Shown here in pieces: positions 1 to 19,059 of a stretch of DNA of 22,665 nucleotides. Under the pieces are notes generated by a model. It saw only the letters and a program-made list of their open reading frames with translations. It did no database searches and was not told the DNA's origin. Source of the DNA: a virus (lineage: Duplodnaviria > Heunggongvirae > Uroviricota > Caudoviricetes); the IMG/VR virus record IMGVR_UViG_2744054628_000009, positions 1 through 22,665 of that record, one strand, 5' to 3'. The translations under genes were made by a program, and so were the position numbers. Within the stretch, counting starts at the first letter, position 1; the number at the start of each line of letters is the position of its first letter.

Positions 1-258
1 ATGCAAACCGTTATTTTTGGTCGTTCGGGTTGCCCTTACTGTGTGCGTGCAAAAGATCTGGCTGAGAAATTGAGCAATGAACGCGATGATTTTCAGTATC
101 AGTATGTAGATATTCGTGCGGAAGGGATCACTAAAGAAGATCTACAACAAAGGCAGGTAAACCCGTAGAAACCGTGCCGCAGATTTTTGTCGATCAGCAA
201 CATATCGGCGGCTATACCGATTTTGCTGCATGGGTGAAAGAAAATCTGGACGCCTGAT
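1..258 (+). pseudogene. grxA: Glutaredoxin 1 with a single-base frameshift (possibly an assembly error)
   Basis: ATG at nt 1; translation MQTVIFGRSGCPYCVRAKDLAEKLSNERDDFQYQYVDIRAEGITKEDLQQ with the CPYC active site, then a stop at 166-168. The +1 frame continues GKPVETVPQIFVDQQHIGGYTDFAAWVKENLDA to TGA 256-258. The break sits at the A-run at 149-151 (AAA where AAAA would restore the frame). Confidence 0.8.
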
Positions 259-286
259 CGTCTGACAAGCCCTCGCGTTGAGGGCT

Positions 287-664
287 TTACTGATTTTTTC
301 TGTGCTGTGGTTTAAACAAACTACTGATAAATAAGAAACACAGTGCCCCCAGCGCACACCAGAACACCGCGCTTAGTAACCATGCCAGCTCTTGCCAGAA
401 TGAGCGCGTCGGTGAAAAAAACAGCCGCATAATGAGCATCGAACAGGGTGCCGCCAGCATTGCGCCAAACAGAGGTTTCAGGACTTCTCTACGCTGTGAA
501 AAGAAGCTGGCGACTGCTCCAGGAAGAATGAAAAATAGCAAGCCGATTTCAGGATGCCCGGCAGCCCGAAAAGCGCCTTTCATGTGCGTCGCCAGAAAAA
601 GGCACACCACAATGAAGAGGACAAAACAGCAGATTGCCCCCGCCCAACGTTGTTTATGTTTCAC
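287..664 (-). CDS. ybjM: Inner membrane protein YbjM
   Basis: 125-aa hydrophobic ORF (MKHKQRWAGAICCFVLFIVV...) in the position and orientation expected between grxA and ybjL in E. coli. Confidence 0.8.
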   Translation of the reverse strand: MKHKQRWAGAICCFVLFIVVCLFLATHMKGAFRAAGHPEIGLLFFILPGAVASFFSQRREVLKPLFGAMLAAPCSMLIMRLFFSPTRSFWQELAWLLSAVFWCALGALCFLFISSLFKPQHRKNQ

Positions 665-933
665 TCGTTCCTCCTGACACTGCGTCTATCGAACACATTT
701 TTCGCCAGTGTGGCGTTCAGTAAGATAAAGCCGCTTCGCATTCCATGCTAATATAGGCCAACGCAATTCATATAGCCGTTGATACCTAATGTGATTACAC
801 TAGTAAAATATATTGTTACTTTACTATCGTTTAGGTGCGCTGAATGAATCTGCGCCCTGAATTCTGGTAAAAAACATTATCGTAAATTACCATTTCTTTC
901 AACAGCTTACTAGTAAACAAGAAGTTAGCCTCC

Positions 934-2619
934 GTGAATATAAACGTCGCCGAATTGTTAAATGGGAATTACATTCTGTTATTATTTGTGGTCCTCGCGC
1001 TTGGGCTATGTCTCGGAAAGTTACGACTTGGTTCGATCCAACTGGGTAATTCCATTGGCGTTTTAGTCGTATCGCTGTTATTAGGCCAACAACATTTCAG
1101 CATTAACACCGATGCGCTTAATCTTGGCTTTATGCTGTTTATTTTCTGCGTCGGGGTCGAAGCCGGACCGAACTTTTTTTCCATTTTTTTTCGCGATGGG
1201 AAAAATTACCTAATGTTAGCACTGGTGATGGTTGGCAGTGCGCTGGTGATCGCCTTAGGGTTAGGTAAGCTGTTTGGCTGGGATATTGGCCTGACGGCCG
1301 GTATGTTAGCAGGCTCTATGACGTCGACACCGGTTCTGGTCGGTGCTGGCGATACACTGCGTCATTCCGGCATGGAAAGCAGGCAGCTCTCACTGGCACT
1401 GGATAATCTGAGCCTCGGGTATGCCTTAACCTATTTAATCGGTCTGGTGAGTTTGATTGTTGGTGCGCGTTACTTGCCGAAATTGCAGCATCAGGACTTA
1501 CAGACCAGCGCCCAGCAAATCGCCCGCGAACGTGGCCTGGACACTGATGCCAACCGTAAGGTTTATTTACCGGTGATCCGCGCCTATCGCGTCGGCCCGG
1601 AACTGGTGGCCTGGACCGACGGCAAAAATCTGCGTGAACTGGGTATTTATCGACAAACCGGCTGCTACATTGAACGTATTCGACGTAACGGGATTCTGGC
1701 AAATCCAGACGGTGATGCCGTGCTACAAATGGGCGATGAAATAGCGTTGGTAGGCTATCCCGACGCCCATGCCCGACTCGATCCCAGCTTCCGTAACGGT
1801 AAAGAAGTTTTCGATCGTGACCTTCTCGACATGCGTATCGTCACTGAAGAAGTGGTCGTTAAAAACCATAACGCTGTAGGTAAACGTCTCGCACAACTGA
1901 AGTTGACCGATCACGGTTGCTTCCTTAACCGCGTCATTCGTAGCCAGATTGAGATGCCGATAGATGACAACGTCGTGCTTAACAAAGGTGACGTTTTACA
2001 AGTCAGCGGCGATGCCCGCCGCGTAAAAACCATCGCCGATCGCATCGGCTTTATCTCGATTCACAGCCAGGTCACTGACCTGCTGGCATTCTGCGCCTTC
2101 TTTGTTATTGGGCTGATGATCGGGATGATCACCTTCCAGTTCAGCACATTCAGTTTCGGCATGGGGAACGCTGCCGGGTTGTTATTCGCCGGAATTATGC
2201 TGGGCTTTATGCGTGCTAACCACCCGACCTTCGGTTACATTCCGCAGGGTGCATTAAGCATGGTGAAAGAGTTCGGCTTGATGGTGTTTATGGCAGGCGT
2301 TGGTCTGAGCGCCGGTAGCGGTATTAATAACGGCCTGGGCGCGATTGGCGGTCAGATGTTGATTGCCGGATTGATTGTCAGTCTGGTGCCCGTGGTTATC
2401 TGTTTCTTGTTCGGTGCTTATGTATTGCGAATGAACCGCGCGCTGTTGTTCGGCGCAATGATGGGCGCACGTACCTGCGCGCCGGCAATGGAGATCATCA
2501 GTGATACAGCTCGCAGTAACATCCCGGCGCTGGGCTATGCGGGCACCTATGCAATCGCCAACGTCCTGCTGACGCTGGCAGGGACAATCATCGTCATGGT
2601 ATGGCCAGGATTAGGATAA
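934..2619 (+). CDS. ybjL: Putative transporter YbjL (AAE-family permease with central TrkA-C-like domains)
   Basis: 561-aa ORF with GTG start; membrane domains at both ends flank a soluble central region; matches remembered E. coli YbjL in length and sequence. Confidence 0.85.
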
Positions 2620-2731
2620 AACTGAAGTTGCCCTGAAAATGAAATTTTTTTGCACAACCGCAGAACTTTTCCGCAGGGCATCAGTCTTAATTAGTGCCAC
2701 TGCTTTTCTTTGATGTCCCCATTTTGTGGAG

Positions 2732-2775
2732 CCCATCAACCCCGCCATTTCGGTTCAAGGTTGATGGGTTTTTTG
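2732..2775 (+). terminator. Rho-independent terminator downstream of ybjL
   Basis: 10-bp perfect inverted repeat cccatcaacc (2732-2741) / ggttgatggg (2759-2768) followed by tttttt (2769-2774). Confidence 0.6.
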
Positions 2776-2854
2776 TTGCCTGAAATTTATGCCGTTTAAA
2801 ATCATGACGTTAGGAGCACTGTTTTTTAACGATGGCGACAAAATGGCGGCAGCG

Positions 2855-3073
2855 TCAAAGAGAGAGCGCCACCTGTCCTGATTTCATTGGATGCGGCTGA
2901 ACCGGATTTGACTCTTTTGGCGTTGCAATCGAACGAACAAAAGTTTCATGGGTAACAAAAGTATGGCTGCAGTTAATGTTCTGGCACTGGTTGTAACGCT
3001 CTTTGGTCAATGAAGATACCTGAAAACTGCTGCGAGTATGGGCGGCACTTCCACACAGTGGGCAAATCATCAT
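2855..3073 (-). CDS. ogr: Late-gene transcription activator, Ogr/B family zinc finger
   Basis: MMICPLCGSAAHTRSSF...KERYNQCQNINCSHTF... carries the C-x2-C...C-x4-C Ogr zinc-finger pattern, about 72 aa from the internal ATG. The ORF-track start at 3106 is probably an upstream extension. Confidence 0.8.
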   Translation of the reverse strand: MMICPLCGSAAHTRSSFQVSSLTKERYNQCQNINCSHTFVTHETFVRSIATPKESNPVQPHPMKSGQVALSL

Positions 3074-3163
3074 TTTTCGAGTTCTCCCCATTTTTGCTAA
3101 ATTCACAATAATGATACCGCATTATTCCATTTTGAAAACTTAAAAGTTCTCCATTGCGAAGAA

Positions 3164-4264
3164 TCACTCCATTTCGAAATCATCAATCTTCACTTCAAGC
3201 TCCAAACTGGTCGTAAAACCGTTATCCGGGCTGACAGTATGCGTCAGGGTGGTAATAGTCCATTCCGCATCATCTATCGGCTGTTTAAAGCCACTGACTT
3301 TCACTGGCATTTCCGTGTAGAGATCTGCCCGACCTTCTGCCAGTTGTAGCGAGAATGACGCAACACCGCGTTGCAGGCGTTCCCACTGCATTTTCGCTGC
3401 CCGCTCGGCGTTGCCCCGGTTGGCATAGGTGCGATTAAGTACCAGCACGTTTTCATCCGTACCCACCAGGTAATCGCCCTGCTTCGCTTCCGGCTCTTTC
3501 TTCTGCTTCTTAGTCCTGCGCTTACGCTTCACGGCAGTGCTTTCTTTCTTCGCGGGTTCACGGGTATGTAACCAACTGGCAATTACGCCCGTATAGGCTC
3601 CGCGATCTGCCAGGGTAAAGCGGTGACTGTCGCCGTCCTTACGTGTGATAGTGATCACCGGCAGTGGTTTACCAGTGGCGCTTTTGCCCTGTCCCTGCCG
3701 GATGAATAACAGATTGCCATTTTTCACCGACGCGATGGCACCGTACTGGCGCGCCAGCCGCATCAGAAAACTGCCGTCACTCTCATTAGTCTGGTCTATA
3801 TGCTCCACGGGCTTATCCGACAGGTCTTTACCCAGTGCCATCTTCAGCTTGTGACGCGCGGCTATTTCCTTCACCACTTCCCCGACAGTGGTCTTGTGCC
3901 ACGACTTTTCACGGCGGGTATTCAGCGTTTCACGAAAATCAGCACTTCGCGCCCGGATAGTCAGGCGGTCCGGTGCGCCAGTGTGTTCAATCTCGTCCAC
4001 CGTGAATGCCCCTTTCGGGAAAAGCGGCTGCCCCTTCCAGCCCAGCGCCAGCGTAATGACCGCACCACGGCGCGGCAGCACGATTTTTCCGTCGGCGTCG
4101 TCCAGCTCCAGATCAAGCTGGTCCGCTTCAAAGCCCCGATTGTCCGTCAGCGTCAGACTCATCAGGCGATTATCCAGGACAGTAGTGATATCCCTGCCCT
4201 CAATACTGATGCTGAATGCGGGAGTTTTGTTGCCCTTGTTAAGCAGTTCAGAGCTGAAATTCAC
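3164..4264 (-). CDS. D: P2 gpD-like tail protein
   Basis: 366-aa ORF immediately upstream of ogr with an ATGA overlap to gpU, as in P2; sequence recalls gpD. Confidence 0.75.
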   Translation of the reverse strand: MNFSSELLNKGNKTPAFSISIEGRDITTVLDNRLMSLTLTDNRGFEADQLDLELDDADGKIVLPRRGAVITLALGWKGQPLFPKGAFTVDEIEHTGAPDRLTIRARSADFRETLNTRREKSWHKTTVGEVVKEIAARHKLKMALGKDLSDKPVEHIDQTNESDGSFLMRLARQYGAIASVKNGNLLFIRQGQGKSATGKPLPVITITRKDGDSHRFTLADRGAYTGVIASWLHTREPAKKESTAVKRKRRTKKQKKEPEAKQGDYLVGTDENVLVLNRTYANRGNAERAAKMQWERLQRGVASFSLQLAEGRADLYTEMPVKVSGFKQPIDDAEWTITTLTHTVSPDNGFTTSLELEVKIDDFEME

Positions 4265-4746
4265 GACAGCAGCCCTCCCACCGTTTTACTGATATCGCTT
4301 AAAGCAGATGTTGCCGTTTCCTGCAGATTATTCAGTTGCGCACTGAGATCACCGAACATATCGGACAGGGATTCATCCACCCGTTTGAGCGACAGGGTGA
4401 ACTCAATCCGGCGCGGCATACCATCGCGGAAAAACTCCGTTTTAGTCTGATTCAGTCCCTCAATCACATACATGCCGTAAATCGTGCCGCTGCCTTCAAT
4501 CAGGGGCCATGCTTTTCCCTGTTCTGCCATCTGCTCCAGAGCCAGCAACGACAGCCTGCCGCCCGTTATCTCCGGCATAAGAACACCAGAAAGCGTCAGC
4601 ATGTCGTTGTCCGGTCCCAGAAACTGCGTGGACGGACGTCGGTTGACCCGGCTGTTTGCCGCATGTCGCCAGCTGCGTTGATACTGCAGTTCCTGATACG
4701 GCACAGTGCGCAGCATAAACACGTACAATCCCAGCACCATCATCAT
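4261..4746 (-). CDS. U: P2 gpU-like tail protein
   Basis: 161 aa (P2 gpU is about 159 aa); position between T and D; start/stop overlaps with neighbours. Confidence 0.75.
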   Translation of the reverse strand: MMMVLGLYVFMLRTVPYQELQYQRSWRHAANSRVNRRPSTQFLGPDNDMLTLSGVLMPEITGGRLSLLALEQMAEQGKAWPLIEGSGTIYGMYVIEGLNQTKTEFFRDGMPRRIEFTLSLKRVDESLSDMFGDLSAQLNNLQETATSALSDISKTVGGLLS

Positions 4747-5634
4747 GCGTCGTATCCCCCCTGATCGCTGTAGTTACTCCTGGCTTTTGCCTTCAGTCTG
4801 CGCTCACGTTCATCAAGCTGGCGGGCCACCTCCCGCGCAATATCCTGCGCACTTTGTCCTGGCTGCGTCTGAATGATGATCTGCGTCGGTGCCTCAATCC
4901 GGTAAATGGGCGGCACAGTAGCTGCACGACTCACCATCGCTTCACCGCCTTTCGCGGGAAGCGCCAAAGGATGCAACGGTGGAAACTCTGCTGGCGCGGC
5001 AGCAACGCCCATCATTCCGGCAACAACGGCAGCCAGTGCAGCTGTATTTTTCCGGCTGGTCACATTTGCCGGGCCGTTAACAATTTCCGGCCCGTTTTCA
5101 CCGACGATGCCAAACTGCCCGCGCGGGATATACCCGCCGCTGTCATACATCCCCGCAAAGCCATATCCCCATGATGGAAAACCACCCGATGGCATCATCA
5201 CTTTACCGTCTGCATTCACCGTCGCAGGTTGCTGACGCGTCACGCTTTCCGGCAGTTTTGCCTTTGCGGCCTCTTTACTGACAATGCCGAGCTTCTCCAG
5301 CAACCAGGAAACGCCAGATTTCAGGGAGTCCAGCGGATGCGTGACCATATTCAGCCCTTCCGCCAGTGCCTCCCCGAATCGCCGCCCCATTGCCGCTGCG
5401 CTCTGCAGTTCGGCAGAGGTCGACTTAACGGGCGTCAGCAGATCAGTAAACCAGCCCCACAGCGCCTGCACTTTGTCGCCAATCCACTGGAACACGGGCT
5501 TAAGCGGTTCGAACGCTGCACTGATGGGACCTGCCGCCGCTTTGAATCCTTCCACCACGCCACCGAGAAATGCGGTGATGGGTTGCCAGTATTTCCAGAC
5601 AACCAGCGCCACGCCCGCCAGTGCAGTAACCACA
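4743..5634 (-). pseudogene. T: Tape measure protein gpT, C-terminal fragment only
   Basis: About 300 codons of Gly/Ala-rich tape-measure-like sequence ending in frame at the U start. The roughly 500 N-terminal codons expected for P2 gpT are absent. The upstream boundary is a deletion junction near 5635-5645. Confidence 0.65.
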
Positions 5635-5991
5635 AGACCTACCTTCAGCCAGTTGCGGCTTATAGCTTTCCGGGCAGTTGCCCACGGCAATCAATGCCCC
5701 GGACTCATCAAACAAGCCCACTTCACGTATCCACCAACCGCCCTCGTTTTCAGGGATCACCTGTTCGGCAATAATCTGGCTGCTGTTCTGCGGGTCGATA
5801 TAAAGCATATTCAGCGCAGCCCGGCGTTTCTCATTTACCAGTGCCGTCTGCTTTGCGTCCGGCGTTGGCAATACTCCACTGCCATCGCCCACCGCCATAT
5901 GGGTAATTTTTAGCGGCACACCGAGCGCGGCGGCGCTGGCAAGTTTCGCCGCGCCAATATCCGTCAGCAGGGTATAAAATTTTGTGCTCAT
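5635..5991 (-). pseudogene. H: Tail fiber protein gpH, N-terminal fragment (about 116 aa) fused out of frame to the gpT fragment
   Basis: MSTKFYTLLTDIGAAKLASAAALGVPLKITHMAVGDGSG...ESYKPQLAEG matches the remembered gpH N-terminus; after ...LAEG the frame reads Cys/Gly/Arg-rich nonsense to a stop at 5500. Confidence 0.7.
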
Positions 5992-6593
5992 GGATTCACT
6001 CTCATTGTGTCAATAACATGGACCGCCCCGCCTTCATGCGCGGTGCCACCGGAAATAATCGTTTCGTTGATATACGGATAGATCGTGATTTCTTCGCCAA
6101 GATAGCTGGCGGCTCCCACCCAATGCGGGCCGCTGGTCTGCAGATTGATGGACATGCCGATCATGTGGCGGCTACATGGTTTGGCATCGCTTATCAGTCG
6201 CTCAAGTTCCAGATAGGTATCTTCAGTGATGCCCTGGTCCTGCACGCCGATATCCAGGCGAAACGTGCCCGGTGTTTCTCCGGTCTGCCACCACTCAATA
6301 ATGCGGATCAGGAATCCGAACGGCTCCACCACCCGCCGCACGGCACTGGTGGTCCCTTTATGCTGATGAATATAAAAAGCATCCTTCACCACCTGGCGCT
6401 TGACGCTTTCTGTCCAGCCCTCGTCCCAGCGATCCACAGAGAACGCCCAAGCGAGATAAGGCAGGAAACTGACCGGACAGGTTGCCGGATTCCACAAGTC
6501 ACGAAGCGGCACCTGCAGATCAGAAATCCCGCTGCAAGTTTGCGCCAGTCGGCGCTCCAGTGGTGTTGAACCCGGTGGCAGCAGACTATTCAT
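5988..6593 (-). CDS. I: Baseplate protein gpI-like
   Basis: MNSLLPPGSTPLERRL...RDLWNPATCP...LPYLAWAFSVDRWDE... matches the conserved gpI N-terminal motifs; 4-nt overlap with the H start. Confidence 0.75.
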   Translation of the reverse strand: MNSLLPPGSTPLERRLAQTCSGISDLQVPLRDLWNPATCPVSFLPYLAWAFSVDRWDEGWTESVKRQVVKDAFYIHQHKGTTSAVRRVVEPFGFLIRIIEWWQTGETPGTFRLDIGVQDQGITEDTYLELERLISDAKPCSRHMIGMSINLQTSGPHWVGAASYLGEEITIYPYINETIISGGTAHEGGAVHVIDTMRVNP

Positions 6594-6846
6594 CCGTTCC
6601 TCCGTTGGTTACGCTCCACTGCGTACATGATGCCGCCTGTGTTTTGTTCAGGACCACATCCGCCACCGTGCCGTCAGTGCGCATGACACTGCGAAACTCC
6701 GACAGGTCCACATCAGGCCAGAACGGCGTATTTCTGATGATTTCCGCCTGTTCCGGTGCCTGTTCTGGCGCAACAAACTTCATGCTGCTTTCTCCTGAAA
6801 TAGAGGGCGGTGGACGGGGTTTTGATGTGGCAGTGCCTTTCGCCAC
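6586..6846 (-). pseudogene. Remnant: about 40 N-terminal codons of head completion protein gpL joined to a short 3-prime tail (probably the end of gpJ)
   Basis: The IIRNTPFWPDVDLSEFRSVMRTDGTV motif resembles the gpL N-terminus. The ORF is only 86 aa and its stop overlaps the gpI start as the J stop does in P2. All of X, lysis genes, R, S, V, W and most of J are missing between M and I. Confidence 0.4.
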
Positions 6847-6878
6847 CCCGTGCCGCCCGTGCGCGGGGGCACGTTCTG

Positions 6879-7529
6879 TCAGCGGCTGTCATTGCGCAGT
6901 CTGCGCTCCAGCTGCTGTTTGTCTTTTTTCACGCCACAGCGGGGATCAAGCTGTAACGCATGGTTGAGATGATTAAGGGCGGAAGCCGGATTGCTTTCAC
7001 TCAGGACAGCGCCAATCGCTTTATGCAGACGCGCCCGTGACTGGTCCGGCATATCCAGACCGTCTGTCAGCTCCAGCGTCTGCAACAACAGATCGGCATC
7101 AAAGCCGGTGGCGGCAAGCATTGCGCTCTGCGCGGCGTCTGCCATTTCCTCTGCCAGCACGGTCTGCACGTTGCGGTTACCCAGCGGCATCACCCAGCCA
7201 TGACGCAGGGCATGACGCCCGATCTCCAGCGCCCCGGCATAATCTCCGGCATCAATGCGCCACAGCATCACGTACATCAGCACATCATCCTGTTGAGCGC
7301 CTCCGGCAGCCAGGACACCCTCTGCCCAGGCGGCGTACTTCGGCAGCAGCTCCACCTTGATTTCCGCTTTTTTGACCGTGGACTGAACACCCTTGAGACG
7401 GCGGCGGTCTTCCGCCAGTTGCAGCAGCATCAGGTCATAGCCCGATGCGTGGCGAACACTGCCGCCCTCGCGGGCGGCCTGTTCAGCCTGAACGCGCAGG
7501 CGATGCTGCCGTGCGGGACTCAGGCTCAT
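6879..7529 (-). CDS. M: Terminase small (endonuclease) subunit gpM-like
   Basis: MSLSPARQHRLRVQAEQAAREGG...AQQDDVLMYVMLWRIDAGDYAGALEIGRHAL... matches remembered P2 gpM from residue 1; GGAG ribosome-binding site about 7 nt upstream on the minus strand. Confidence 0.75.
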   Translation of the reverse strand: MSLSPARQHRLRVQAEQAAREGGSVRHASGYDLMLLQLAEDRRRLKGVQSTVKKAEIKVELLPKYAAWAEGVLAAGGAQQDDVLMYVMLWRIDAGDYAGALEIGRHALRHGWVMPLGNRNVQTVLAEEMADAAQSAMLAATGFDADLLLQTLELTDGLDMPDQSRARLHKAIGAVLSESNPASALNHLNHALQLDPRCGVKKDKQQLERRLRNDSR

Positions 7530-9015
7530 GGATTACGCTCCGGTTTCGGCTGCGGCGGCGCTGAAATCACCAATCTGGATGTTTTCCAACCGCAATAAAG
7601 GCCCACGCCGTCAGCCGGAAAAGAATGTTTTCACCGATGAGCAGATTGAGAAGCTGGAAGAAATCTTCCATTCCTCCATGTTCAACTACCAGCGCCACTG
7701 GTGGGAAGCCGGAAAAACCAACCGCATCCGCAACCTGCTGAAGTCACGCCAGATCGGCGCGACCTTCTATTTTGCCCGTGAAGCCCTGATTGACGCCCTG
7801 CTTACCGGACGTAACCAGATTTTCCTTTCTGCCAGTAAGGCTCAGGCCCACGTCTTTAAACAATACATCATCGACTTTGCCAAAGAAGTCGAGGTGGAGC
7901 TAAAAGGCGATCCGATGGTGCTTCCTAACGGAGCCACGCTTTACTTCCTCGGCACCAATGCCCGCACGGCCCAGAGTTATCACGGCAACCTGTATCTGGA
8001 TGAATATTTCTGGATACCGAAATTCCAGGAGCTGCGCAAAGTGGCTTCCGGGATGGCTATTCACAAAAAATGGCGACAAACCTATTTTTCCACGCCATCC
8101 AGCCTGACCCACAGTGCTTATCCGTTCTGGTCCGGTGCGCTGTTCAACCGTGGACGCAACAAAGCTGACAAGGTGGACATCGACCTGTCCCACAGCAATC
8201 TGGCCCCCGGCCTGCTGTGCGCAGACGGGCAATACCGCCAGATAGTCACCGTGGAAGATGCGGTGCGCGGCGGCTGTAACCTGTTCGACCTCGACCAGCT
8301 ACGCATGGAGTACAGCCCGGACGAATACCAGAACCTGCTGATGTGCGAGTTCGTGGACGATCTCGCGTCCGTGTTCCCGCTCAGCGAACTGCAGGCGTGC
8401 ATGGTGGACAGCTGGGAAGTCTGGACCGACTTTCATGCACTGGCCCTGCGCCCGTTTGGCTGGCGCGAAGTGTGGATCGGTTATGACCCGGCAAAAGGTA
8501 CGCAGAACGGCGACAGTGCCGGATGCGTGGTGGTGGCTCCGCCAGCCGTGCCGGGTGGTAAGTTCCGCATTCTTGAGCGTCACCAGTGGCGCGGGATGGA
8601 CTTCCGCGCCCAGGCTGACGCCATCAAAAAACTCACCGAACAGTACAACGTGACCTATATCGGTATCGACTCAACCGGCGTTGGTCACGGGGTTTATGAG
8701 AACGTGAAAGCGTTCTTTCCTGCCGTCCGGGAGTTTGTCTACAACCCCAATGTTAAAAACGCCCTGGTACTCAAGGCCTACGACATTATCAGCCACCGCC
8801 GTCTGGAGTTTGACGCCGGGCACACCGACATTGCGCAGTCATTCATGGCAATCCGTCGCGCCACCACCGCCAGCGGCAACCGCCCGACCTATGAAGCCAG
8901 CCGCAGCGAAGAAGCCAGCCACGCCGATCTGGCCTGGGCAACGATGCACGCACTGTTTAACGAACCGCTGCAGGGCGAATCCGCCAATACCAGCAATATT
9001 GTGGAGATTTTTTGA
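7528..9015 (+). CDS. P: Terminase large (ATPase) subunit gpP-like, probably truncated at the 5-prime end
   Basis: Walker-A-like LKSRQIGAT; 4-nt overlap with the Q start. The M start codon abuts this ORF with no room for the divergent promoters or for O and N. The first 20-30 codons of the ORF are probably not native. True start not determined. Confidence 0.65.
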   Translation: MDYAPVSAAAALKSPIWMFSNRNKGPRRQPEKNVFTDEQIEKLEEIFHSSMFNYQRHWWEAGKTNRIRNLLKSRQIGATFYFAREALIDALLTGRNQIFLSASKAQAHVFKQYIIDFAKEVEVELKGDPMVLPNGATLYFLGTNARTAQSYHGNLYLDEYFWIPKFQELRKVASGMAIHKKWRQTYFSTPSSLTHSAYPFWSGALFNRGRNKADKVDIDLSHSNLAPGLLCADGQYRQIVTVEDAVRGGCNLFDLDQLRMEYSPDEYQNLLMCEFVDDLASVFPLSELQACMVDSWEVWTDFHALALRPFGWREVWIGYDPAKGTQNGDSAGCVVVAPPAVPGGKFRILERHQWRGMDFRAQADAIKKLTEQYNVTYIGIDSTGVGHGVYENVKAFFPAVREFVYNPNVKNALVLKAYDIISHRRLEFDAGHTDIAQSFMAIRRATTASGNRPTYEASRSEEASHADLAWATMHALFNEPLQGESANTSNIVEIF

Positions 9016-10040
9016 TGGGAAAGAGTAAGAAAAACCGCGCTGCGGCGACGAATCAGCTCAAGCATAAAAGCCAGACTTCAGCCGAAGCATTCAGCTTTGG
9101 CGATCCCGTTCCTGTTCTGGACCGCCGTGAACTGCTGGACTATGTGGAATGCGTACAGATGGACCGCTGGTATGAGCCGCCCGTCAGCTTTGACGGACTG
9201 GCACGAACCTTCCGCGCTGCCGTGCATCACAGCTCACCGATTGCAGTAAAATGCAACATTCTGACCAGTACCTACATCCCTCACCCGCTGCTCAGCCAGC
9301 AGGCTTTTTCACGTTTTGTGCAGGACTATCTGGTATTTGGTAACGCCTACCTGGAGAAACGCACGAACCGCTTCGGTGAAGTTATCGCCCTTGAGCCTGC
9401 TCTGGCAAAATACACCCGACGCGGGTTAGACCTGGATACCTACTGGTTTGTGCAATACGGTATGACAACCCAGCCGTATCAGTTCACGAAAGGCAGCATT
9501 TTTCATCTGATGGAACCGGACATTAACCAGGAGATCTACGGCCTGCCCGGCTATCTTTCTGCCATTCCGTCCGCCCTGCTCAATGAGTCCGCCACGCTGT
9601 TCCGCCGCAAGTATTACATTAACGGTAGTCATGCAGGCTTCATCATGTACATGACCGATGCTGCGCAGAACCAGGAGGACGTGAACAACCTCCGCAATGC
9701 AATGAAAAGTGCCAAAGGTCCGGGTAACTTCCGCAACCTGTTTATGTACTCGCCTAACGGCAAAAAGGACGGCCTTCAGATCATCCCTTTGTCAGAAGTT
9801 GCGGCGAAGGATGAGTTTCTAAATATCAAGAACGTGAGCCGGGATGACATGATGGCAGCACATCGCGTTCCGCCACAGATGATGGGGATAATGCCTAATA
9901 ATGTTGGGGGATTTGGGGATGTAGAAAAAGCTAGTAAGGTATTTGTGAAAAATGAATTATTACCATTACAAAAAAGAATGAAAGAATTTAATCATTGGAG
10001 CGGTGAAGAAATTATAAAATTCGAGAGATATCAAATTTAG
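9012..10040 (+). CDS. Q: Portal protein gpQ-like
   Basis: 342 aa (P2 gpQ is about 344 aa), immediately downstream of P with an ATGA overlap. Confidence 0.8.
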   Translation: MMGKSKKNRAAATNQLKHKSQTSAEAFSFGDPVPVLDRRELLDYVECVQMDRWYEPPVSFDGLARTFRAAVHHSSPIAVKCNILTSTYIPHPLLSQQAFSRFVQDYLVFGNAYLEKRTNRFGEVIALEPALAKYTRRGLDLDTYWFVQYGMTTQPYQFTKGSIFHLMEPDINQEIYGLPGYLSAIPSALLNESATLFRRKYYINGSHAGFIMYMTDAAQNQEDVNNLRNAMKSAKGPGNFRNLFMYSPNGKKDGLQIIPLSEVAAKDEFLNIKNVSRDDMMAAHRVPPQMMGIMPNNVGGFGDVEKASKVFVKNELLPLQKRMKEFNHWSGEEIIKFERYQI

Positions 10041-10041
10041 C

Positions 10042-10066
10042 AAAGTGCCTCTAAAAGAGGCGCTTT
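10042..10066. terminator. Hairpin between the convergent Q and DprA-like genes (possible bidirectional terminator)
   Basis: aaagtgcctct-aaa-agaggcgcttt: an 11-bp stem with one G-T pair, A-rich on the 5-prime side and T-rich on the 3-prime side. Confidence 0.45.
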
Positions 10067-11039
10067 AAATCAAGTCTAATGTACTCTGTTTCCCTGGCCA
10101 TTTTAGCTCTAACAAATACTCCCGAGACTCATTTATGATCATAATCACATCATCATAATCCCGTTTTGTTTTTAACGCTCTAGCCATGTTGCTCTTAACT
10201 AAATCAACTGTTCCCTCACAATTAAGATTAAGCGGATTATTAGGTAGGTGAGGTACAACCGCAAACACTGGTCTTTTCGCCTTATTTGCAAACTCAGCTT
10301 GAGTTATCGTTCCGCTATTTAACGCAGCCTCGATTAAAATTGAACCTGCAGATAATCCAACTTGTATCCGATTTCTTTGTACAAATGATTGTTTCTGGGC
10401 CGGTCGACCCATAGGATACTCAGAAATCCATGCACCACCTTTATCCAGAATCTCTTGAGCAAGTCGACTGTTTTGCTTCGGCTTAGCCTCCTCAAGACCA
10501 TGCGCCAAGACAGCAATGGTTTTTCCTTTTGCTTGTAACGTTGCCTTATGAGCATTCGCATCAGTGCCTATTGCTAACCCACTTACAACAATATACCCAG
10601 CAGACACTATTTGATTAGTGATTCGCCTCGTTATTTCTTCCCCTGCAGGGGAAGTATCACGGGATCCTACAATTGCGACACCCGGCAATTCTTTTAGTAT
10701 ACTTTTATCCCCTTTTATGTAGAGAATTGATGGTGGATTAGGAGTAAACGCTAAACTAAGAGGATAGAATTCAGACCCATATGGTATTAGCTCCACACCA
10801 TTAACATGGTGGTTCTCCAATTCAGCATTCGCTATTAGAAAATCAGTCTCAGATATTTTATCTTTTAGAAACCCGTGGCTATTAACCATCTCAGTTAAGT
10901 CGCGTATATCACGAATAACATCAAAATCAATAAGCTCAAAGAATTTCAATACACTTTGATCAGATGCTAGCTTCCCGATTTGAATAGCTAATCCAAGTGT
11001 ATTTTTTAATTCTTCTGAGTGCACTTTGCTACTCCTCAT
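10065..11039 (-). CDS. shosA: DprA/Smf-like (SLOG-fold) protein; ShosA-like
   Basis: C-terminal region VAIVGSRDTSPAGEEI...SGLAIGTDANAHKATLQAKGKTIAVLAHGLE...QRNRIQVGLSAGSILIEAALNSGTI fits the DprA Rossmann-domain pattern. Start overlaps the upstream PRTase gene by 11 nt; an AGGAG precedes an alternative GTG at 11027. Confidence 0.65.
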   Translation of the reverse strand: MRSSKVHSEELKNTLGLAIQIGKLASDQSVLKFFELIDFDVIRDIRDLTEMVNSHGFLKDKISETDFLIANAELENHHVNGVELIPYGSEFYPLSLAFTPNPPSILYIKGDKSILKELPGVAIVGSRDTSPAGEEITRRITNQIVSAGYIVVSGLAIGTDANAHKATLQAKGKTIAVLAHGLEEAKPKQNSRLAQEILDKGGAWISEYPMGRPAQKQSFVQRNRIQVGLSAGSILIEAALNSGTITQAEFANKAKRPVFAVVPHLPNNPLNLNCEGTVDLVKSNMARALKTKRDYDDVIMIINESREYLLELKWPGKQSTLDLI

Positions 11040-11604
11040 AGTTTGCAGTTTCTAGCAGAGCTAATGGCATTATAACTCCAGCTCCTGCAGACTCCAGTAA
11101 ATAAAAACACGCAGACAAACTACCGCCTGTTGTTTTAACATCATCTAGTAGTAACACATTTCGCCCCATGAGGTTACCACCCCTAACTCTGATACTAGAC
11201 ATGTGACCAGTAATTGAGCGATCTCCTCCTTCACGATGTGCGCTAGGAACAGTGCGTGTTCTTTCCAAACAGCAATCAACAATGCCCCGACGGTGAACAT
11301 TTACGATTCGCTCGGCGACCTCAATCAAAGCCGGTGAAATTCTGCCTTCAGTGTGAGATGGGACGACTGCTATCGAAAAAGGAGACTCAACAAAACGCCC
11401 ACCGCCACCTCTGATTACTAACCGCCCAACCTTATCTATAGCTAATCGAGAAAAACGGTTAATAGCCCTTTGATGATTACGATTATTTTCATCCTTAAAA
11501 TCCATCATCTGCCTTGATAGTTCATCGCTATGAGGGTTGCGCTCTCCCAAATGCCAGTAGGGGTGATACAAGCCACACGATGTAACACTTACGGGTAAAA
11601 GCAT
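11029..11604 (-). CDS. shosT: Phosphoribosyltransferase-domain protein; ShosT-like
   Basis: Type I PRTase PRPP-binding motif VLLLDDVKTTGGSL near residue 150; 191 aa; translationally coupled to the DprA-like gene. Confidence 0.65.
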   Translation of the reverse strand: MLLPVSVTSCGLYHPYWHLGERNPHSDELSRQMMDFKDENNRNHQRAINRFSRLAIDKVGRLVIRGGGGRFVESPFSIAVVPSHTEGRISPALIEVAERIVNVHRRGIVDCCLERTRTVPSAHREGGDRSITGHMSSIRVRGGNLMGRNVLLLDDVKTTGGSLSACFYLLESAGAGVIMPLALLETANYEE

Positions 11605-11761
11605 TCTTTATTCTCATGTAGTCCTAACTCAAACAATGTTAAGCGAAATGATATTTCATAGACAAACATAAAATTAAGAATAATCTCAATGATCACATTT
11701 TTGATTATGAAACAAAGCCAAGAGTTAGCGCGCGCTCGTATCCCCGCCACGCCTGCCCGCT

Positions 11762-11880
11762 TTATGCAGTGGTTTTCATGCACATGCATGACATGAGCAA
11801 AAGCCCGCCAGTTCTGGCGGATCTGAGCAAAGACGATCCTCAATCGATCATGCGATTTCATGCAGCATAGTCATGCACTG
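11762..11880. repeat. Cluster of (T/A)CATGCA heptamer repeats flanking a GC-rich inverted repeat
   Basis: TCATGCA at 11776, 11857 and 11869; variants TTATGCA at 11762 and ACATGCA at 11782; inverted repeat ccgccag-tt-ctggcgg at 11805-11820. Lies in a 528-bp intergenic region between divergent genes. Confidence 0.4.
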
Positions 11881-12132
11881 TCAAGGAAGTGAAAATCCGT
11901 ATCTGAATGGCCACTTGAAAAACGGATCATACGGGTTTACAAAGATGAATGTTCGCTGTGAACGGGAAGCGGAAGTTAACTTTCAGATAACATAATCCAT
12001 ATGCACGAGAACCTCTAAAATAGAATGGGACACCTAAGCGGGGTACTTACAACGATTCTTTCCATATTCACAGTTAACACTCTGTTTGGCGTATTTTTAT
12101 TCAAATAGCAAACACCAATAAAAGGAGTTTCC

Positions 12133-12468
12133 ATGAACAATATTCCCCCTATACCACAGTTAGGAATTTATGTCTCAAAAATCGATCCCACCCTACGTAT
12201 CACTGTAACCGATGTTGATATTGTTGATGGTGAGGATGATTCTCCTGATGATGAATTGTTTTATTTAGTCCACTGGATCGAGGGGGAAGATGAAAGTGAT
12301 ATGACAGCAATGGGATTTGAGCTAGACCCATTAGAGTGGCAGGCTTTCGTTGAATCTGAGCAATTAGTGTTTGAGCGTGATCCGTACATGGATTCAATCC
12401 CCGAAAATTCAAACTTGGCAAAGATTCGGGATTTTCTCATGAAGACTAAACAGAATGATCATTCGTAA
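12133..12468 (+). CDS. Highly acidic small hypothetical protein (111 aa)
   Basis: Strong ribosome-binding site AAAGGAG 7 nt before the ATG; protein very rich in D/E (DVDIVDGEDDSPDDELF...EGEDESD...); no family recognised. Confidence 0.6.
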   Translation: MNNIPPIPQLGIYVSKIDPTLRITVTDVDIVDGEDDSPDDELFYLVHWIEGEDESDMTAMGFELDPLEWQAFVESEQLVFERDPYMDSIPENSNLAKIRDFLMKTKQNDHS

Positions 12469-12660
12469 GTGTAAGCATCCATCAGGAAAATGGTTTTGTA
12501 AGTGAATCATCAACTTTTAGAGAGTCTCAGACACTCCCACTTCTGCTTCTGACACAAAGCGGACGATCACTTATCAAAATAACCGCCCACCTTACGCCTT
12601 ATTTCACTCATTGCCCAAACTAGCCCCCATCAGAATGAATCCTCCTGGGGGCAACATTTC

Positions 12661-12894
12661 TTAATGCAGCCAGCTGTCGTCCTCCCACACCTTCTGCATA
12701 ATTTTCATCACTTGTTTTCTTTCTTCATCCAGTTGCAGTCCGGTTAGTTCCACACCGTTAGAGCTACCTTTGCGAATGCGAATTACCGTTTTGGGATACA
12801 GGGGGCGCAGATTGCGGTAAAGCTCGGATTCAAGTGCGTCCAGGGTAGACTGGCTAATCTTCTGCTCTTTATCGATCATTATTTCAATGCGCAT
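12661..12894 (-). CDS. DinI-like protein
   Basis: MRIEIMIDKEQKISQSTLDALESELYRNL...KIMQKVWEDDSWL resembles DinI (MRIEVTIAK...). Own GAGGTG ribosome-binding site; the ORF-track start at 12966 is likely an artefactual extension. Confidence 0.7.
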   Translation of the reverse strand: MRIEIMIDKEQKISQSTLDALESELYRNLRPLYPKTVIRIRKGSSNGVELTGLQLDEERKQVMKIMQKVWEDDSWLH

Positions 12895-12904
12895 AAAAGT
12901 CACC

Positions 12905-13093
12905 TCAGCTGATGACATCCATTGAGCGGTTGTATTCGTGGCTTCTGATTTTTGCCATGAGTTCATCAGTCAATTCAGAAACCCACTGCAGAGCCAGCCC
13001 CTTCTCTTCATCACTACACTCACTAGCCGCTACAAGCTTAAGAAAAAAATCAATGCGCTGGAGCTTCAAAGACTCCAAAAAATAGTCCTGCAT
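12905..13093 (-). CDS. Small SOS-regulated protein, first gene of a LexA-controlled operon (Tum-like antirepressor candidate)
   Basis: 62-aa ORF preceded by an AGGAGG ribosome-binding site and a LexA box; its stop overlaps the ribosome-binding site of the DinI-like gene. Function inferred from position only. Confidence 0.5.
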   Translation of the reverse strand: MQDYFLESLKLQRIDFFLKLVAASECSDEEKGLALQWVSELTDELMAKIRSHEYNRSMDVIS

Positions 13094-13133
13094 CTTTCCT
13101 CCTATGACACCAAAACAATACTGTATACATAAC

Positions 13134-13153
13134 CACTGTTTATATTTACAGTA
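13134..13153 (-). promoter_or_regulatory. LexA operator (SOS box) in the promoter of the tum/dinI-like operon
   Basis: caCTGTttatatttACAGta is a perfect CTGT-N8-ACAG with an AT-rich spacer, 41-60 nt upstream of the ATG at 13093; a CTGT half-site sits at 13121-13124. Confidence 0.7.
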
Positions 13154-13245
13154 TATAATAATCTTACTGATGTAAAACGTTTTTTTACGTTCATCGGCCT
13201 GATATGCCTGGTATTATTAAGAGCACGAATTGTTAACCCGCGTAA

Positions 13246-15660
13246 TTAATACAGGTTCCGCCACTTATCATCTTCCTTCAGACGCTGGTTCCGATAGAAG
13301 ATACGCAGGCCTGCTCCTGACGGAATACTGCCGCCGCGAAGGAGCAAATCGACTTCTTTCTCGCTGCCATCAAATCCCCTGGACTTCAGTTCATAGACGA
13401 GCTGCTGTCGCTGATGGTCTGTAATTCGCTGTTTGTAGTCTTTACGCCGTTTCGGTTTCACCTGGCGTAACCTTGCAGCCAGTTCCCGGCGCTCTTTTTT
13501 GCTCATACTGTGCAGGTAATCGTGCAACTCCTTGTCATTCATACGGGTAATATCCGTTCTGGAGTCCCCATCAGCTGATTTGTCTTTCCCTTGTTGGTTC
13601 AAATTTTCAGCAAGGGGACAGTTATTGCCACGAGTCCAAGGGGCGCAAGCGCCCTGGTCGGCTGCCGCCTCCTGAACGTCAACGACCTTACGAACCATTT
13701 TCCATTTCATTGCATGAGTGCAGATCTTGCCCTGTACAATGGGTGACCAGATGCCATAAATACGAATACCGTGATCGCCATAAGCGGTCGGCTCTTCGTT
13801 AATTTCATAAGCTGTTCTGATAAGGTGATATTTGCGGGGAACCAGTACGCCGCCCTGCTTCATGATGTAGGTGGCAAAACAGCCAGCATCAGCGGCAGCC
13901 AGGATGGCATCAAGGCGCGGGTCATCCAGTACCGGCGCACCTGCTTTTTTATCACCCTGTTGCCTTGCCGCCTGACCAGCCAGCAAGCGAAGTTCACGGT
14001 ACGCCTGACGCCCCGGAATACCAAAGAAGCGGAACTGCTGAACACGATGCAGAGACGCCCAGGCATTAACGTATTCGGCGTTATCACGCAGGGATTTACC
14101 CGTTTCCTTGCTGATCTCGCCAGCCAGACCACGTCCGTCAATGTTCTTACTGATGTATTTCGCGATGTAGCTTGTCGGCGTTCCTTTGCGCGGGTTTATC
14201 AGCTCAGACTTAAAGCGTGGACCCGTGTTATTGCCCAGTTCCTCGCGGTCTTCACGGATGGCAAACTTACGCAACAATGCAGTAATGGCGCGGCGGTCTT
14301 TTTTGCGCATGAAACACATGAGATGCCAGTGCACAGTACCGTCATGGTGCGGCTCAGCCACCCGCACGCCATACCAGCGCAACCCGGCTTTGTGCATAGC
14401 CTTACGAAATGCAGCAAACATGCCGACCAGATAATCGCTGCTTTGTCTTACCGTCGCATTTGTCCAGGTTGGGTTTGGTCTGCCGTTATTGAGCGTAGAA
14501 TGGAAACGTGACGGACAGGTAATGGTGTAGAAAACGGCGCAGTCACCACGCATTTCCGCGATAAGCTCCAGACCTTTAACACAGGCCATCATCTCATTGC
14601 GGCGGTGCGCCGGGTTGCTGCTGCTGGCGTTTACCACGTCTTCCATATCCAGCGTGTCGCCGTCTTCGTTCACCAGTTCATGAGAACGGAAAAACTCCAG
14701 CGACTTGCGGCGCTGCTCACGTTTATGCGTCACTGCTTCATAGCTGACATAGGGAGATGCTTTTTTGCTGACCAGGCAGACAGCACGCAACTGCTCTTCC
14801 CGCCATTCGCAACGTATCTTCCACAATTTTCGATACCACCAGTCGGCGCAAAGCATACGTGCCAGCGAACCCGGTATGAGTTCATAGGGCACGGGTTTGC
14901 GGCGGTTTCTTTTCCGACGGAGTTTCTCAAACGCAGGCGGGATAACATCCAGACGCAGGGTTTCCGCTGCCACCTTTTCCCATGTCTTGCGGATTTCTTC
15001 TGGCTTAACGTCATCGGAGGCATACAAATCACCACAAGCGGCCTCAAGACACATGCTCATATGCGCTGCTACCAAGGTGGACAGGCGTTTTACCTGATCC
15101 TGACTCATTTCAGGTAGGATCAGCAGGCCCTCAAGCCCTTGATGGCTTGCCATAAAACGGAAAGAAGCGGATAGCTGACTGTCGCGTACATACTCCAGTC
15201 GCTCCAGACATGACTTAATCGTCTCACGCAAATAGCGGGAATAAGCCTTTGGCCTGCCCAGGCTGCTGAAGTATTCGATACGTTGCATCAGCGGCTTGCT
15301 GATGTGGGTGGGCTGGGCGCTGACGTCCGCCAGAATGACCATGTCCGGGTTAAAACGCTGCTGCTCATGCGCCAGCTTTGCCCGACTAATGAGATTATCC
15401 TGCTCCATTTCGCGCTGGACAGGATCACGGGATTCATTAAAGAAATAACGCTCCCAGACCTGCTCACTCAGTGCATCGCGGCGCAGCTGTTCCTGCTCGT
15501 TATCGGCAGCGTACAAAGTGATCATGTTTGAAAGTGCAGACTCCGGCGCAACTTCCGCCGGGTCCAGATAAGGGTTAATGGCCTTTTTCGGGCCGTTCCA
15601 TGAAAATGCTGCAGCGGCCTCGTTAAAGCCGCTAGAGTTGCTCATATCATCATGACTCAT
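13246..15660 (-). CDS. A: Replication initiation protein gpA-like (rolling-circle nickase)
   Basis: 804-aa ORF at the end of the early operon with an ATGA overlap to the upstream dam gene; sequence recalls P2/186 gpA. Confidence 0.8.
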
Positions 15661-16513
15661 ACACGCACCTCGTACACAGCAGAACTATCCACGCCACGCG
15701 AAGGATCAAATCCCACCCAGCAGCGCGCCCCGGAAACAGCAATGATTTCTGTTGCAGATTTACTCTCGCCAGCCGACACGCCGATGCTGCGTTTTGCCTT
15801 GATGTAGTGGTGAGTGAAATTGCGATACAGCGAACGAATCAGGGATGTGTCACTGTTAGAAACAATGACCGGATGACCTTCAGATGATCGATGTTCAAGA
15901 ACGGATGCCAGGTGATACTGGTCATCCTCAGTGAAGCCATCAGTGTGATAGCCGGAAAACGTACCGTCATAAGGCGGATCGCAATACACCACATCCCCCG
16001 CCTTCAACATCGCCAGCGTTTCATCAAAGCTGGCGCAGATAAACGTTGCTCGCTGGGCTTTTTCTGCAAATTTGCGAATTTCTTTTTCAGGGAAATACGG
16101 ATTTTTATAATTCCCGTAGGGAATGTTGAATGCCCGCTCTTGTTATAGCGACATAACCCACGGTAACCATGACGATTGAGATACAGGAAATATACCGCTT
16201 TCATGAAATCAGTAATTTCAGTGGAGTAATTAAACTCCTGCCTTATGTTGTAATAAGCCACCTCCCTGTTTGCTTCCTCAAATAAAGCTCTGGCACGAGA
16301 TATAAACGCCTCGCAATCAGCAGCAACCTTTTTATAGAGGTTGATTAAATCAGGATTAATATCCGCAACAAGATAGCTGGGGTAATCCGTCTCTATCATC
16401 ACAGCACAAGAACCCGCGAAAGGTTCAACCAGTCGCGGGCCAGCAGGAAGGTATTTTTTCAGTTCTGGCATAATGGCGGTTTTATTACCCGCCCATTTCA
16501 GGATGGTGCTCAT
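15657..16513 (-). pseudogene. dam: DNA adenine methyltransferase (Dam-like) with a frameshift near 16129-16131
   Basis: N-terminal ORF has motif I ([11 protein letters not shown]) and ...[17 protein letters not shown]; the -1 frame continues [38 protein letters not shown]...VVYCDPPY (motif IV). One base missing in a short homopolymer. Confidence 0.8.
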
Positions 16514-16737
16514 ACAGCACCTCCGTTGTAATGTTTGCCTTTCAGCTCTGCGATTTCCTGACAGGTAATGCAAAGCTGCACACCCGGAATGGCGCGACGT
16601 CGTGCTGGCGGAATTGGTGCTTCACACTCAATGCAAAGCACGCGGGATACGCCCGGCGTTTTGGCGCGGGCAGCACGGATATGACGCTGGCGTTCTTCTT
16701 CAACGCGCTGCTGTACGAGATCCATTGCATCAGCCAT
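16510..16737 (-). CDS. TraR/DksA-family C4 zinc-finger protein
   Basis: C-x2-C ... C-x2-C pattern ([26 protein letters not shown]); AGGAG ribosome-binding site; ATGA overlaps with both neighbours. Confidence 0.7.
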
Positions 16738-16970
16738 CAGTGGATCTCCTGCGCTTCGTTCTGGATTGCTTCAGCAGTCACACGCAGCAGTTCTGCCGCT
16801 TCGACGTGGTTTAGCTGGCGGGATGTGATATGACACGCTAGGCTATCAAGGCGAGCTGCCATTGCTTCAGCCCTTGCCCGGCGTTCTTCCAGACGAGCCT
16901 CTGTCAGTAAAATATTAAGCCCTGCATCATCCGGTCCGGTTTTAGTCGTGAGGGTTTCAATATTACGCAT
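16737..16970 (-). CDS. Hypothetical early-operon protein
   Basis: AGGAGA ribosome-binding site 7 nt before ATG 16970; stop overlaps the start of the TraR-like gene. Confidence 0.5.
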   Translation of the reverse strand: MRNIETLTTKTGPDDAGLNILLTEARLEERRARAEAMAARLDSLACHITSRQLNHVEAAELLRVTAEAIQNEAQEIH

Positions 16971-17037
16971 AATCAATTCTCCTGAATTTAGATAAAGGGA
17001 TGCCTGGCGGGTTTACGCCATGAATTTCATTAGTTGG

Positions 17038-17379
17038 TTAATTCGGCATGGTTAGCCGTCTGGGAAATAAGCTCACCACTGCACGAAAATGATTCATTGC
17101 TTTAATCAGCTCCCGCTTTTCGTCAGTGGTCAGCTCATTAATGCTGATGCTATGACGTTCAGCTGGAATTTTTGCCATAAAGAATATGGCAGCCAGTGCC
17201 CGTTTATTTTGTTCATTATTGATATCCCGTGGATCACGCATATCTTTAATAAACCGCTCAAGCTCTGACTCAATATTCAGGCCAAAAACTTTCGCTCTTA
17301 ATTCCGCAATATGATTAAGTCCATTCAGGCGTTCACCGGGGCTTAATGGAACAGTCGCCGCAGCGCCTTCAATAGCCAT
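17038..17379 (-). CDS. Hypothetical early-operon protein (113 aa)
   Basis: GGGGGAA ribosome-binding site 5 nt upstream of ATG 17379; lies in the cII-to-A early operon. Confidence 0.5.
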   Translation of the reverse strand: MAIEGAAATVPLSPGERLNGLNHIAELRAKVFGLNIESELERFIKDMRDPRDINNEQNKRALAAIFFMAKIPAERHSISINELTTDEKRELIKAMNHFRAVVSLFPRRLTMPN

Positions 17380-17543
17380 TGGTTCCCCCGTTTTTTCGTT
17401 GATAGTTCTGCCAGCAATTCATCTTGTGAACGGCACGGATGCCAGCGTTTACCATCCTCACCCATGATCCAGCCGTGACCGTAGTGCATTGCCGGACTTT
17501 GTTTTACCAGCAGCGATGCAAATGATGGTTCTTTCGTCAGCAT
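17343..17543 (-). CDS. Hypothetical early-operon protein (66 aa)
   Basis: GAGGTG ribosome-binding site overlapping the cII stop; ATG at 17543; the longer ORF-track version (start 17573) overlaps cII. Confidence 0.5.
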   Translation of the reverse strand: MLTKEPSFASLLVKQSPAMHYGHGWIMGEDGKRWHPCRSQDELLAELSTKKRGNQWLLKALRRLFH

Positions 17544-17550
17544 AAGCACC

Positions 17551-18066
17551 TCACAGCAAACCGAATGAAGCACCGAGGCCAGTCACGGTATCAACTGCAC
17601 TCGCCATCGCAGGATTAGCCTGTAAACGGGCCTGCAATGAAACAGCAGCCAGCGCCATCAGTCGTGTAACAGAGTTAATGCTGCTGATCGCATCACGACG
17701 GCCTGCACTGGTTTTTACATCGCCAGAAACCGCACCTGCCGCGACACGCCCTATCTCTGCAGTTGCACTCATGACGTAATGCGGCAGTTTCTCTTTTGCC
17801 ACCTCATTAATCGGTACACATGGCAGGCAGTGAATCTGTGCCAGAAAGCCATCTACCAGCGTTGAATCTTCAGTCAGATCGGTAAGCAGCCAGATTTCTG
17901 GCGCATTGAGCTGATGCGGTTGATCTGGGTTGAGTTTGTTTCGCAGAGTCTGGACATTCATTCCTGCACGTTCTGCCAGCTTCGCCATATTGTGACGAAG
18001 TGCAAAAGCTCTACAGGCTTCATCAAAATGCGGGTGTTTGGAAACTTGGTAATCAAACATGGTCAA
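17551..18066 (-). CDS. cII: Phage 186 CII-like lysogeny-establishment activator
   Basis: [47 protein letters not shown]... closely matches remembered 186 CII; 171 aa versus about 169 aa. Confidence 0.8.
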
Positions 18067-18092
18067 TGCCTCTGATGTATTTCAGAATCGAA

Positions 18093-18314
18093 CTAATTAA
18101 GGTTTAGATTGCATTCTGAAAGCGCATCAACGGTCATGGCTGCTATGTTGATCATCACTTTTTCGCGTTTTTTATCTTTCCGCAGACGGTGACGGATAAG
18201 ACGTCCATCAGCCAACATGTCATTGATAGTATCGATGGATAGCCCTGTCAGCTCGCTATAACGTTCAATAGTCACATGAGGCGTGGTAAGAGTGATTGAA
18301 ATGTTAGGTTTCAT
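18093..18314 (-). CDS. apl: Apl-like excisionase / transcriptional regulator
   Basis: 73-aa basic protein that is the first gene of the lytic operon, divergent from cI, as in phage 186. Confidence 0.65.
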
Positions 18315-18386
18315 GATGCAACATTCCTCGTTTAATGTTGATTAATCAGGACGAATACGGATCGTTTGTATTTTGTGAACATCATA

Positions 18387-18415
18387 AACATACGATCGCA
18401 TAGTGAAATCGTCAA
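18387..18415 (-). promoter_or_regulatory. Candidate lytic promoter pR driving apl-cII
   Basis: On the minus strand: TTGACG (18410-18415), 17-nt spacer, TATGTT (18387-18392). Flanked by inverted gtgaac (18379-18384) / gttcac (18424-18429), a possible operator. Confidence 0.5.
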
Positions 18416-18439
18416 GACAAAAGTTCACTTGGAGTGACC

Positions 18440-19009: not shown

Positions 19010-19059
19010 TATAGGAATGTTTTTATGCTTGGTAAAGCATTTGTTGTGGTGTAAAAAAT

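Follow-up and report, generated by a model that had tools for sequence, protein, structure and literature searches.

A very probable 2,335-bp deletion scar between the capsid and terminase genes of a P2-like prophage in Escherichia coli

How did the gene for a terminase small subunit come to lie directly against an oppositely oriented terminase large subunit gene, at a place where phage P2 carries its capsid genes? In the stretch of DNA analysed here (22,665 nucleotides, hereafter the window), the start codon of gpM directly abuts a P-like ORF on the plus strand, as the ORF listing confirms, and the divergent start codons of the two share a CATG palindrome at 7527-7530. The P2 record (NC_001895) places O, N and the divergent promoters pO and pP, with their shared activator site, between P and M, just as the original prediction for this locus stated. 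That prediction held that a deletion joined at the M start codon had removed O, N and the beginning of P, leaving an element unable to make capsids.

The window is 100% identical to part of the E. coli draft assembly GCA_001641955.1 (contig LSBS01000223.1, 108 kb). A distant BLAST search of window 5500-11500 against phage records returned Elveevirus-type P2-like phages such as Cartapus (Elveevirus, NC_070909) at ∼95% identity, aligned in two pieces that together span 3.4 kb of the window but 5.7 kb of the phage. Our intact reference came from a search of the whole window against 5,426 complete E. coli genomes: the PCP06171 prophage (NZ_CM129872.1), integrated at the same ybjL-rcdA site, matches the window over its full length (100%), in four blocks distributed along 37.6 kb (Table 1). 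Both this prophage and Cartapus have the same gene order as the window and 94-99.8% nucleotide identity to it over the four retained blocks, and the M, Q and P(113-588) proteins of the PCP06171 prophage are 98-99.5% identical to those of the window; unlike either relative, the window has no N, O or late promoter, its P is cut short at the 5' end, and the tail, baseplate and lysis genes are missing. P2 itself is more distant. It is complete and has the canonical Q-P / O-N-M-L order, and its gpP, gpQ and gpM are 65%, 61% and 49% identical to the window proteins. Membership of the P2 family is evident both from BLAST (Cartapus, P2 and the PCP06171 prophage) and from Pfam matches to gpM, gpP, gpQ, gpI, gpU, gpD, Ogr and gpA. 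The element runs from ogr, beside ybjL, to int (21613-22665), which adjoins rcdA in relatives, and so lies entirely within the window; with an integrase at one end and host genes flanking it, it is integrated in the chromosome.

Table 1. Retained blocks, deletion junctions and genes around the gpM/P-like locus, with the matching positions in the intact PCP06171 prophage.
Feature	Window position	Strand	PCP06171 prophage position	Description
Block 1	1-5641		501-6142	
Block 2	5639-6665		13886-14912	
Block 3	6661-7588		19758-20685	
Block 4	7586-22665		23018-38097	
D1 junction	5639-5641			CTA microhomology; 7,746 bp missing, from tape-measure gene T to fibre gene H (T' to H')
D2 junction	6664-6665			CA microhomology; 4,850 bp missing, from within J to within L
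D3 junction	7586-7588			CCA, 3-bp microhomology; N 3' tail (left) to terminase P codon 113/114 (right)
gpM, terminase small subunit	6879-7529	-		216 aa, intact ORF; PF05944, E = 2e-40
N remnant (major capsid gene)	7533-7588	-		stop codon 7533-7535 and last ∼18 codons
P-like ORF, terminase domains	7528-9015	+		495 aa
Probable spurious 5' extension of P-like ORF	7528-7585	+		19 codons, antisense to N tail and M-N spacer
P', large terminase without first ∼113 codons	7589-9015	+		ATPase and nuclease domains intact; N-terminal Terminase_5 lost
gpQ, portal	9015-10040	+		341 aa, intact ORF; PF04860; own promoter absent

Alignment to the intact relatives places a junction, which we call D3, inside the interval 7500-7650 of the original prediction, although not at the M start codon: it lies 57-60 bp to the right of that codon, at a CCA trinucleotide, and the BLAST and tblastn alignments to intact phages rule out the start codon itself as the breakpoint. 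In Cartapus, window 6661-7588 corresponds to 3001-3928 and window 7586-10021 to 6261-8696; in the PCP06171 prophage the two blocks around D3 are likewise colinear (blocks 3 and 4 of Table 1). The blocks overlap by exactly 3 bases in both comparisons, the breakpoint can slide by 3 bp on the PCP06171 prophage, and 2,335 bp are absent relative to both relatives. An internal block is thus missing between flanks that are colinear with an intact relative, as expected of a deletion. Chance does not account for D3, because each flank has 97-99% identity to phage DNA that is intact and contiguous. On the P2 map, the P breakpoint would fall at ∼nt 2651 (codon 114).

The content lost in D3 comprises N codons 1-334, the whole of the scaffold gene O, the 142-bp O/P intergenic region and P codons 1-112. 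The removal of O and N was therefore correctly foreseen for all of O and for most of N, with the last ∼18 codons of N surviving left of the junction. With N of the PCP06171 prophage as the tblastn query, N aa 335-352 align to window 7589-7536 at 89% identity; the coordinates of this remnant derive from the annotation of that prophage, in which N occupies 20630-21688. Between the N stop codon and M, the M-N spacer (7530-7532) is also kept. We searched for a full-length P and for O and N elsewhere in the element, any of which would have contradicted the original prediction. By tblastn with queries from the PCP06171 prophage and P2, the window holds no N or O homolog other than the 18-codon N tail, and no P N-terminus was found with either P of the PCP06171 prophage or P2 gpP.

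The loss of the native 5' end of P, predicted from the outset, is borne out by tblastn and Pfam: aa 1-112, including PF06056, are missing, and native sequence begins at codon 113/114 of 588. From there on P' is 99.4% identical to aa 113-588 of P in the PCP06171 prophage (476 aa) and 65% identical to aa 114-590 of P2 gpP (both tblastn). Pfam finds Terminase_6N and Terminase_6C in P', with PF06056 Terminase_5 (aa 11-68 of the intact protein) alone lost. The stretch 7528-7585 aligns to the M/N side of intact phages and not to P. Its ATG comes from the CATG in which the M start codon also lies, a chance opening, and the antisense N sequence happens to stay open in the P frame over 19 codons. The 495-aa P-like ORF would then be a gene-caller artefact carrying 19 non-native codons, and we suggest annotating the 495-aa terminase call on this contig as a pseudogene truncated at its 5' end. 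Its two neighbours are closely conserved, gpM being 99.5% identical to M of the PCP06171 prophage over 216 aa and gpQ 98.2% identical to Q over 341 aa (tblastn).

Can the surviving packaging genes be expressed? In the P2 annotation, P and Q form a single operon transcribed from pP, and pO lies upstream of O. Both pP and pO, the operon promoter of M, fall inside the block deleted in D3. The 142-bp O/P spacer of the PCP06171 prophage contains one TGT-N12-ACA dyad, which we take to be the Ogr/Delta-type site of P2/P4 late promoters, and one more lies in each of the spacers that precede the sheath gene and V, the V-side site (16709 in the PCP06171 prophage) lying within the D2 block. D1, D2 and D3 between them take in all three dyads of the intact prophage. 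None is present in the prophage remnant, the only two in the window sitting in host genes, and no sigma-70-like promoter, including any substitute for P', is predicted in 6800-7800. Because the late dyads have all been deleted and that region holds no sigma-70-like promoter, M, P' and Q appear to be relics whose reading frames are open but which have no promoter. The gene for the late activator, ogr (window 2855-3073), is intact; with all three dyads in deleted blocks, it is left without any target in the element.

The wider alignment reveals that D3 is one of three junctions, at which 14.9 kb in total is missing in three blocks. D1 removed E, E+E', the tube and sheath genes, the invertase, the fibre assembly genes and the pF promoter; D2 removed W, V, S, R, the lysis genes, X and the pV promoter. 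T, H and J are mostly deleted and most of the baseplate is absent. The prediction that no capsids can be made agrees with the absence of N and O beyond the N stub, and the defect is wider than was supposed, extending to sheath, tube, baseplate, fibres and lysis genes: of the genes essential for a virion, N and O are absent, P is truncated, and the sheath, tube, V, W, S, R and lysis genes are gone. The three deletions together would remove every Ogr-dependent late promoter as well as the head, tail and lysis functions. Left behind would be a cryptic prophage, unable to move, in which ogr survives along with cos, the region for immunity, integration and replication, and two loci of defence cargo (ShosTA and a KAP NTPase), and we would score the element as a cryptic prophage in which M and Q are promoterless relics.

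Two other kinds of element were considered and rejected. A P4-like satellite or PICI has genes of its own (primase-helicase alpha, Sid/Psu, delta) and no P2 structural remnants, while the window has a P2-type gpA, truncated P2 structural genes, the N stub and flanks colinear with a full phage. An R-type tailocin has no head genes but retains its contractile tail, baseplate and lysis module in complete form; here the sheath, tube, V, W, most of J and H and the lysis cassette lie in D1 or D2.

None of the 5,426 complete E. coli genomes contains the D3 junction (401-bp junction-spanning query). An exact 24-mer search of metagenome contigs and of the representative genomes in GTDB did not find it either, and the chimeric 495-aa ORF, looked up as an exact protein, matches the source contig only. 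D2 is likewise seen only in the source draft assembly. The D1 junction, on the other hand, is 100% identical in the finished genome of E. coli AHB21 (NZ_OZ547226.1), a UK blood isolate; an exact look-up of the truncated T' protein, made for intermediates carrying D1, returned the source contig only. Over the 14.1 kb that AHB21 shares with the window (1-6665 and 15240-22665) there are 0 substitutions, and with further host flank from the source contig there is 1 SNP in ∼19 kb. AHB21 retains 582 bp of J that are missing from the window and then jumps directly into gpA, having lost J through A, including W to L, M, N, O, P, Q, ShosTA and cos. It appears, then, that the common ancestor of the window and AHB21 carried D1 and that the two lineages then lost different blocks, in a span too brief for substitutions to build up. 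Since D1 is common to both, with near-identical flanks, yet a different later block was lost in each, decay of this prophage appears to be stepwise, recent and lineage-specific.

A third remnant occupies the same site in strain 730V1 (O19:H7, NZ_CP061764.1), with different T'/H' and J/A junctions and with IS1 and IS5 insertions. The same ybjL-rcdA prophage has decayed at least three times independently with different breakpoints (the window; AHB21 17344-20266; 730V1 11344-17390). The AHB21 and 730V1 remnants resemble the window in having ogr-D-U-T' on the left and the early, immunity and int region on the right, and the sheath-to-fibre block is lost from all three. They differ from it in that J/W through most of gpA has gone in a single larger deletion with other endpoints, leaving no M, P', Q, ShosTA or cos.

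At D3 the 3' part of N was joined to codon 113 of P at the CCA microhomology. CCA is the sole sequence shared by the two breakpoints in the intact reference, where no longer direct or inverted repeat links them, and a check for short direct repeats flanking the junction thus yields these 3 bp alone. Nor is there an IS element, an att site or a long repeat at the junction, and breakpoint identity of a few bases free of such features is what illegitimate recombination leaves. Because short microhomologies occur at all three junctions and D3 has no IS element, att site or longer repeat, we infer illegitimate recombination at microhomologies, probably independent of RecA and proceeding by replication slippage or template switching, or by microhomology-mediated end joining. 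We simulated 200,000 deletions placed at random in the intact prophage and scored their junction ambiguity, which reached at least 3 bp with P = 0.055 and at least 2 bp with P = 0.16. The CCA alone is thus only marginally above chance (P ∼0.055), while the joint probability of the observed 3, 2 and 3 bp is ∼5e-4. Our conclusion is that D3 is very probably the scar of a spontaneous 2,335-bp deletion in a P2-like (Peduoviridae, Elveevirus-like) E. coli prophage at the ybjL/rcdA site.

The event itself might have been more complex than a single excision. D2 and D3 could be the product of one template switch (MMBIR/FoSTeS-like), in which synthesis passed from J to L, copied ∼925 bp (L'-M-N') and then moved on to P. 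The two junctions lie just 925 bp apart, each with 2-3 bp of microhomology, and both are missing from AHB21, with its 0-1 substitutions in ∼19 kb, which argues that both arose in a very short interval; no intermediate with only D2 or only D3 was found among the 5,426 finished genomes or by exact-protein look-ups. That lack of intermediates is weak evidence, however, given that the search covered these genomes and look-ups only, and independent deletions are frequent in this prophage, as AHB21 and 730V1 show. We consider a single switch unlikely, and the end result would be the same for the D3 finding. It is also conceivable that there was no deletion at all, the strain carrying an intact N-O-P region or an AHB21-type structure that was mis-joined in the draft. 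The D3 junction is unique to one draft assembly, and that assembly has homopolymer indels, including a frameshift in grxA. Against this, assemblers mis-join at long shared k-mers rather than at 3-bp microhomologies, and no repeat links the breakpoints; D1, its neighbour on the contig, is confirmed independently by a finished genome; and the 108-kb contig is continuous through its host flanks. Decay here being both recurrent and recent, a real deletion is far likelier than an assembly artefact, which we regard as very improbable.

The base-level quality of the draft is nevertheless imperfect, since it carries two single-A deletions in A-runs relative to AHB21, at window 149 and 16129, of which the former frameshifts the housekeeping gene grxA (window 1-258). 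Because of the latter, the dam methylase of the prophage is read as two ORFs, 15657-16010 and 16004-16573. As these are the only differences from AHB21 in 14 kb, both are probably homopolymer sequencing errors in the draft.

A different question is whether the remnant has been put to use. Under functional domestication, the retained cos, M, P', Q, A and int would amount to an element that a helper can mobilise, or P', Q and M would have been kept for a role that benefits the host, for example by interfering with incoming P2-like phages. Packaging by the cos mechanism suits a P2 head poorly at a size of ∼20 kb, which is that of the element. The M, P' and Q ORFs are indeed uninterrupted, a cos-like sequence is kept at 11727-11781 and the element contains defence cargo. 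However, the sequence shared with AHB21 is essentially identical (0 substitutions in the window, 1 in ∼19 kb), and with deletions so recent, open reading frames are no sign of selection. Moreover, the promoters and activator sites of all late genes are gone, P' is without its N-terminal domain, and AHB21 has discarded the whole M-P-Q-cos-A block. Domestication therefore seems to us extremely improbable. The looser speculation, in which either D2 and D3 stem from one template-switch event or a full P2-like phage has degenerated into a helper-dependent 'hitcher' in the making (cos, M, P', Q, A, int, ShosTA), we hold to be distinctly unlikely.

Read as the deletion scar that we favour, D3 is routine, textbook prophage decay by deletion, of a kind already known. 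Bobay et al. (PNAS, 2014) reportedly described 'grounded' defective prophages that degrade by deletion. Set beside defective or 'grounded' prophages, the window is a well-resolved and very recent example with breakpoints known to the base pair, and otherwise there is nothing notable about it. Defective prophages are known to shed structural and lysis genes progressively through deletions while immunity and cargo genes are kept (PMC6379469). D3 has little importance beyond annotation, although together the window, AHB21 and 730V1 offer base-pair-resolved independent deletions of one prophage at one site in near-identical strains, and a clean illustration of structural and lysis modules being purged fast while immunity and defence cargo are kept.

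The cargo itself deserves brief description. At window 10065-11604, on the minus strand, lies a ShosTA (DprA-PRTase) anti-phage system, assigned by homology, in which a DprA-like protein (PF02481; PADLOC ShosA, E = 3e-70) overlaps a PRTase-like protein (PADLOC ShosT, E = 4e-14). Its location is the known P2 defence hotspot between the portal gene Q and cos, in which the DprA-PRTase system has been described (Rousset et al.). The 55 bp at window 11727-11781 match, at 98%, what is annotated in Cartapus as a putative cos site, and this cos-like site survives though the packaging and head genes are crippled. The usual picture of cargo and immunity outlasting morphogenesis genes fits here, and the ShosTA block too is dispensable, as AHB21 shows. 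Just upstream of int, window 18434-21526 (plus strand) encodes a tandem pair of CI-type repressor paralogs, of 191 aa and 307 aa (the latter with an apparently duplicated N-terminal module), followed by a KAP-family P-loop NTPase that PADLOC reports as candidate PDC-S20 (E = 8e-78). This region may be a second cargo or defence locus, and it is kept in AHB21 too.
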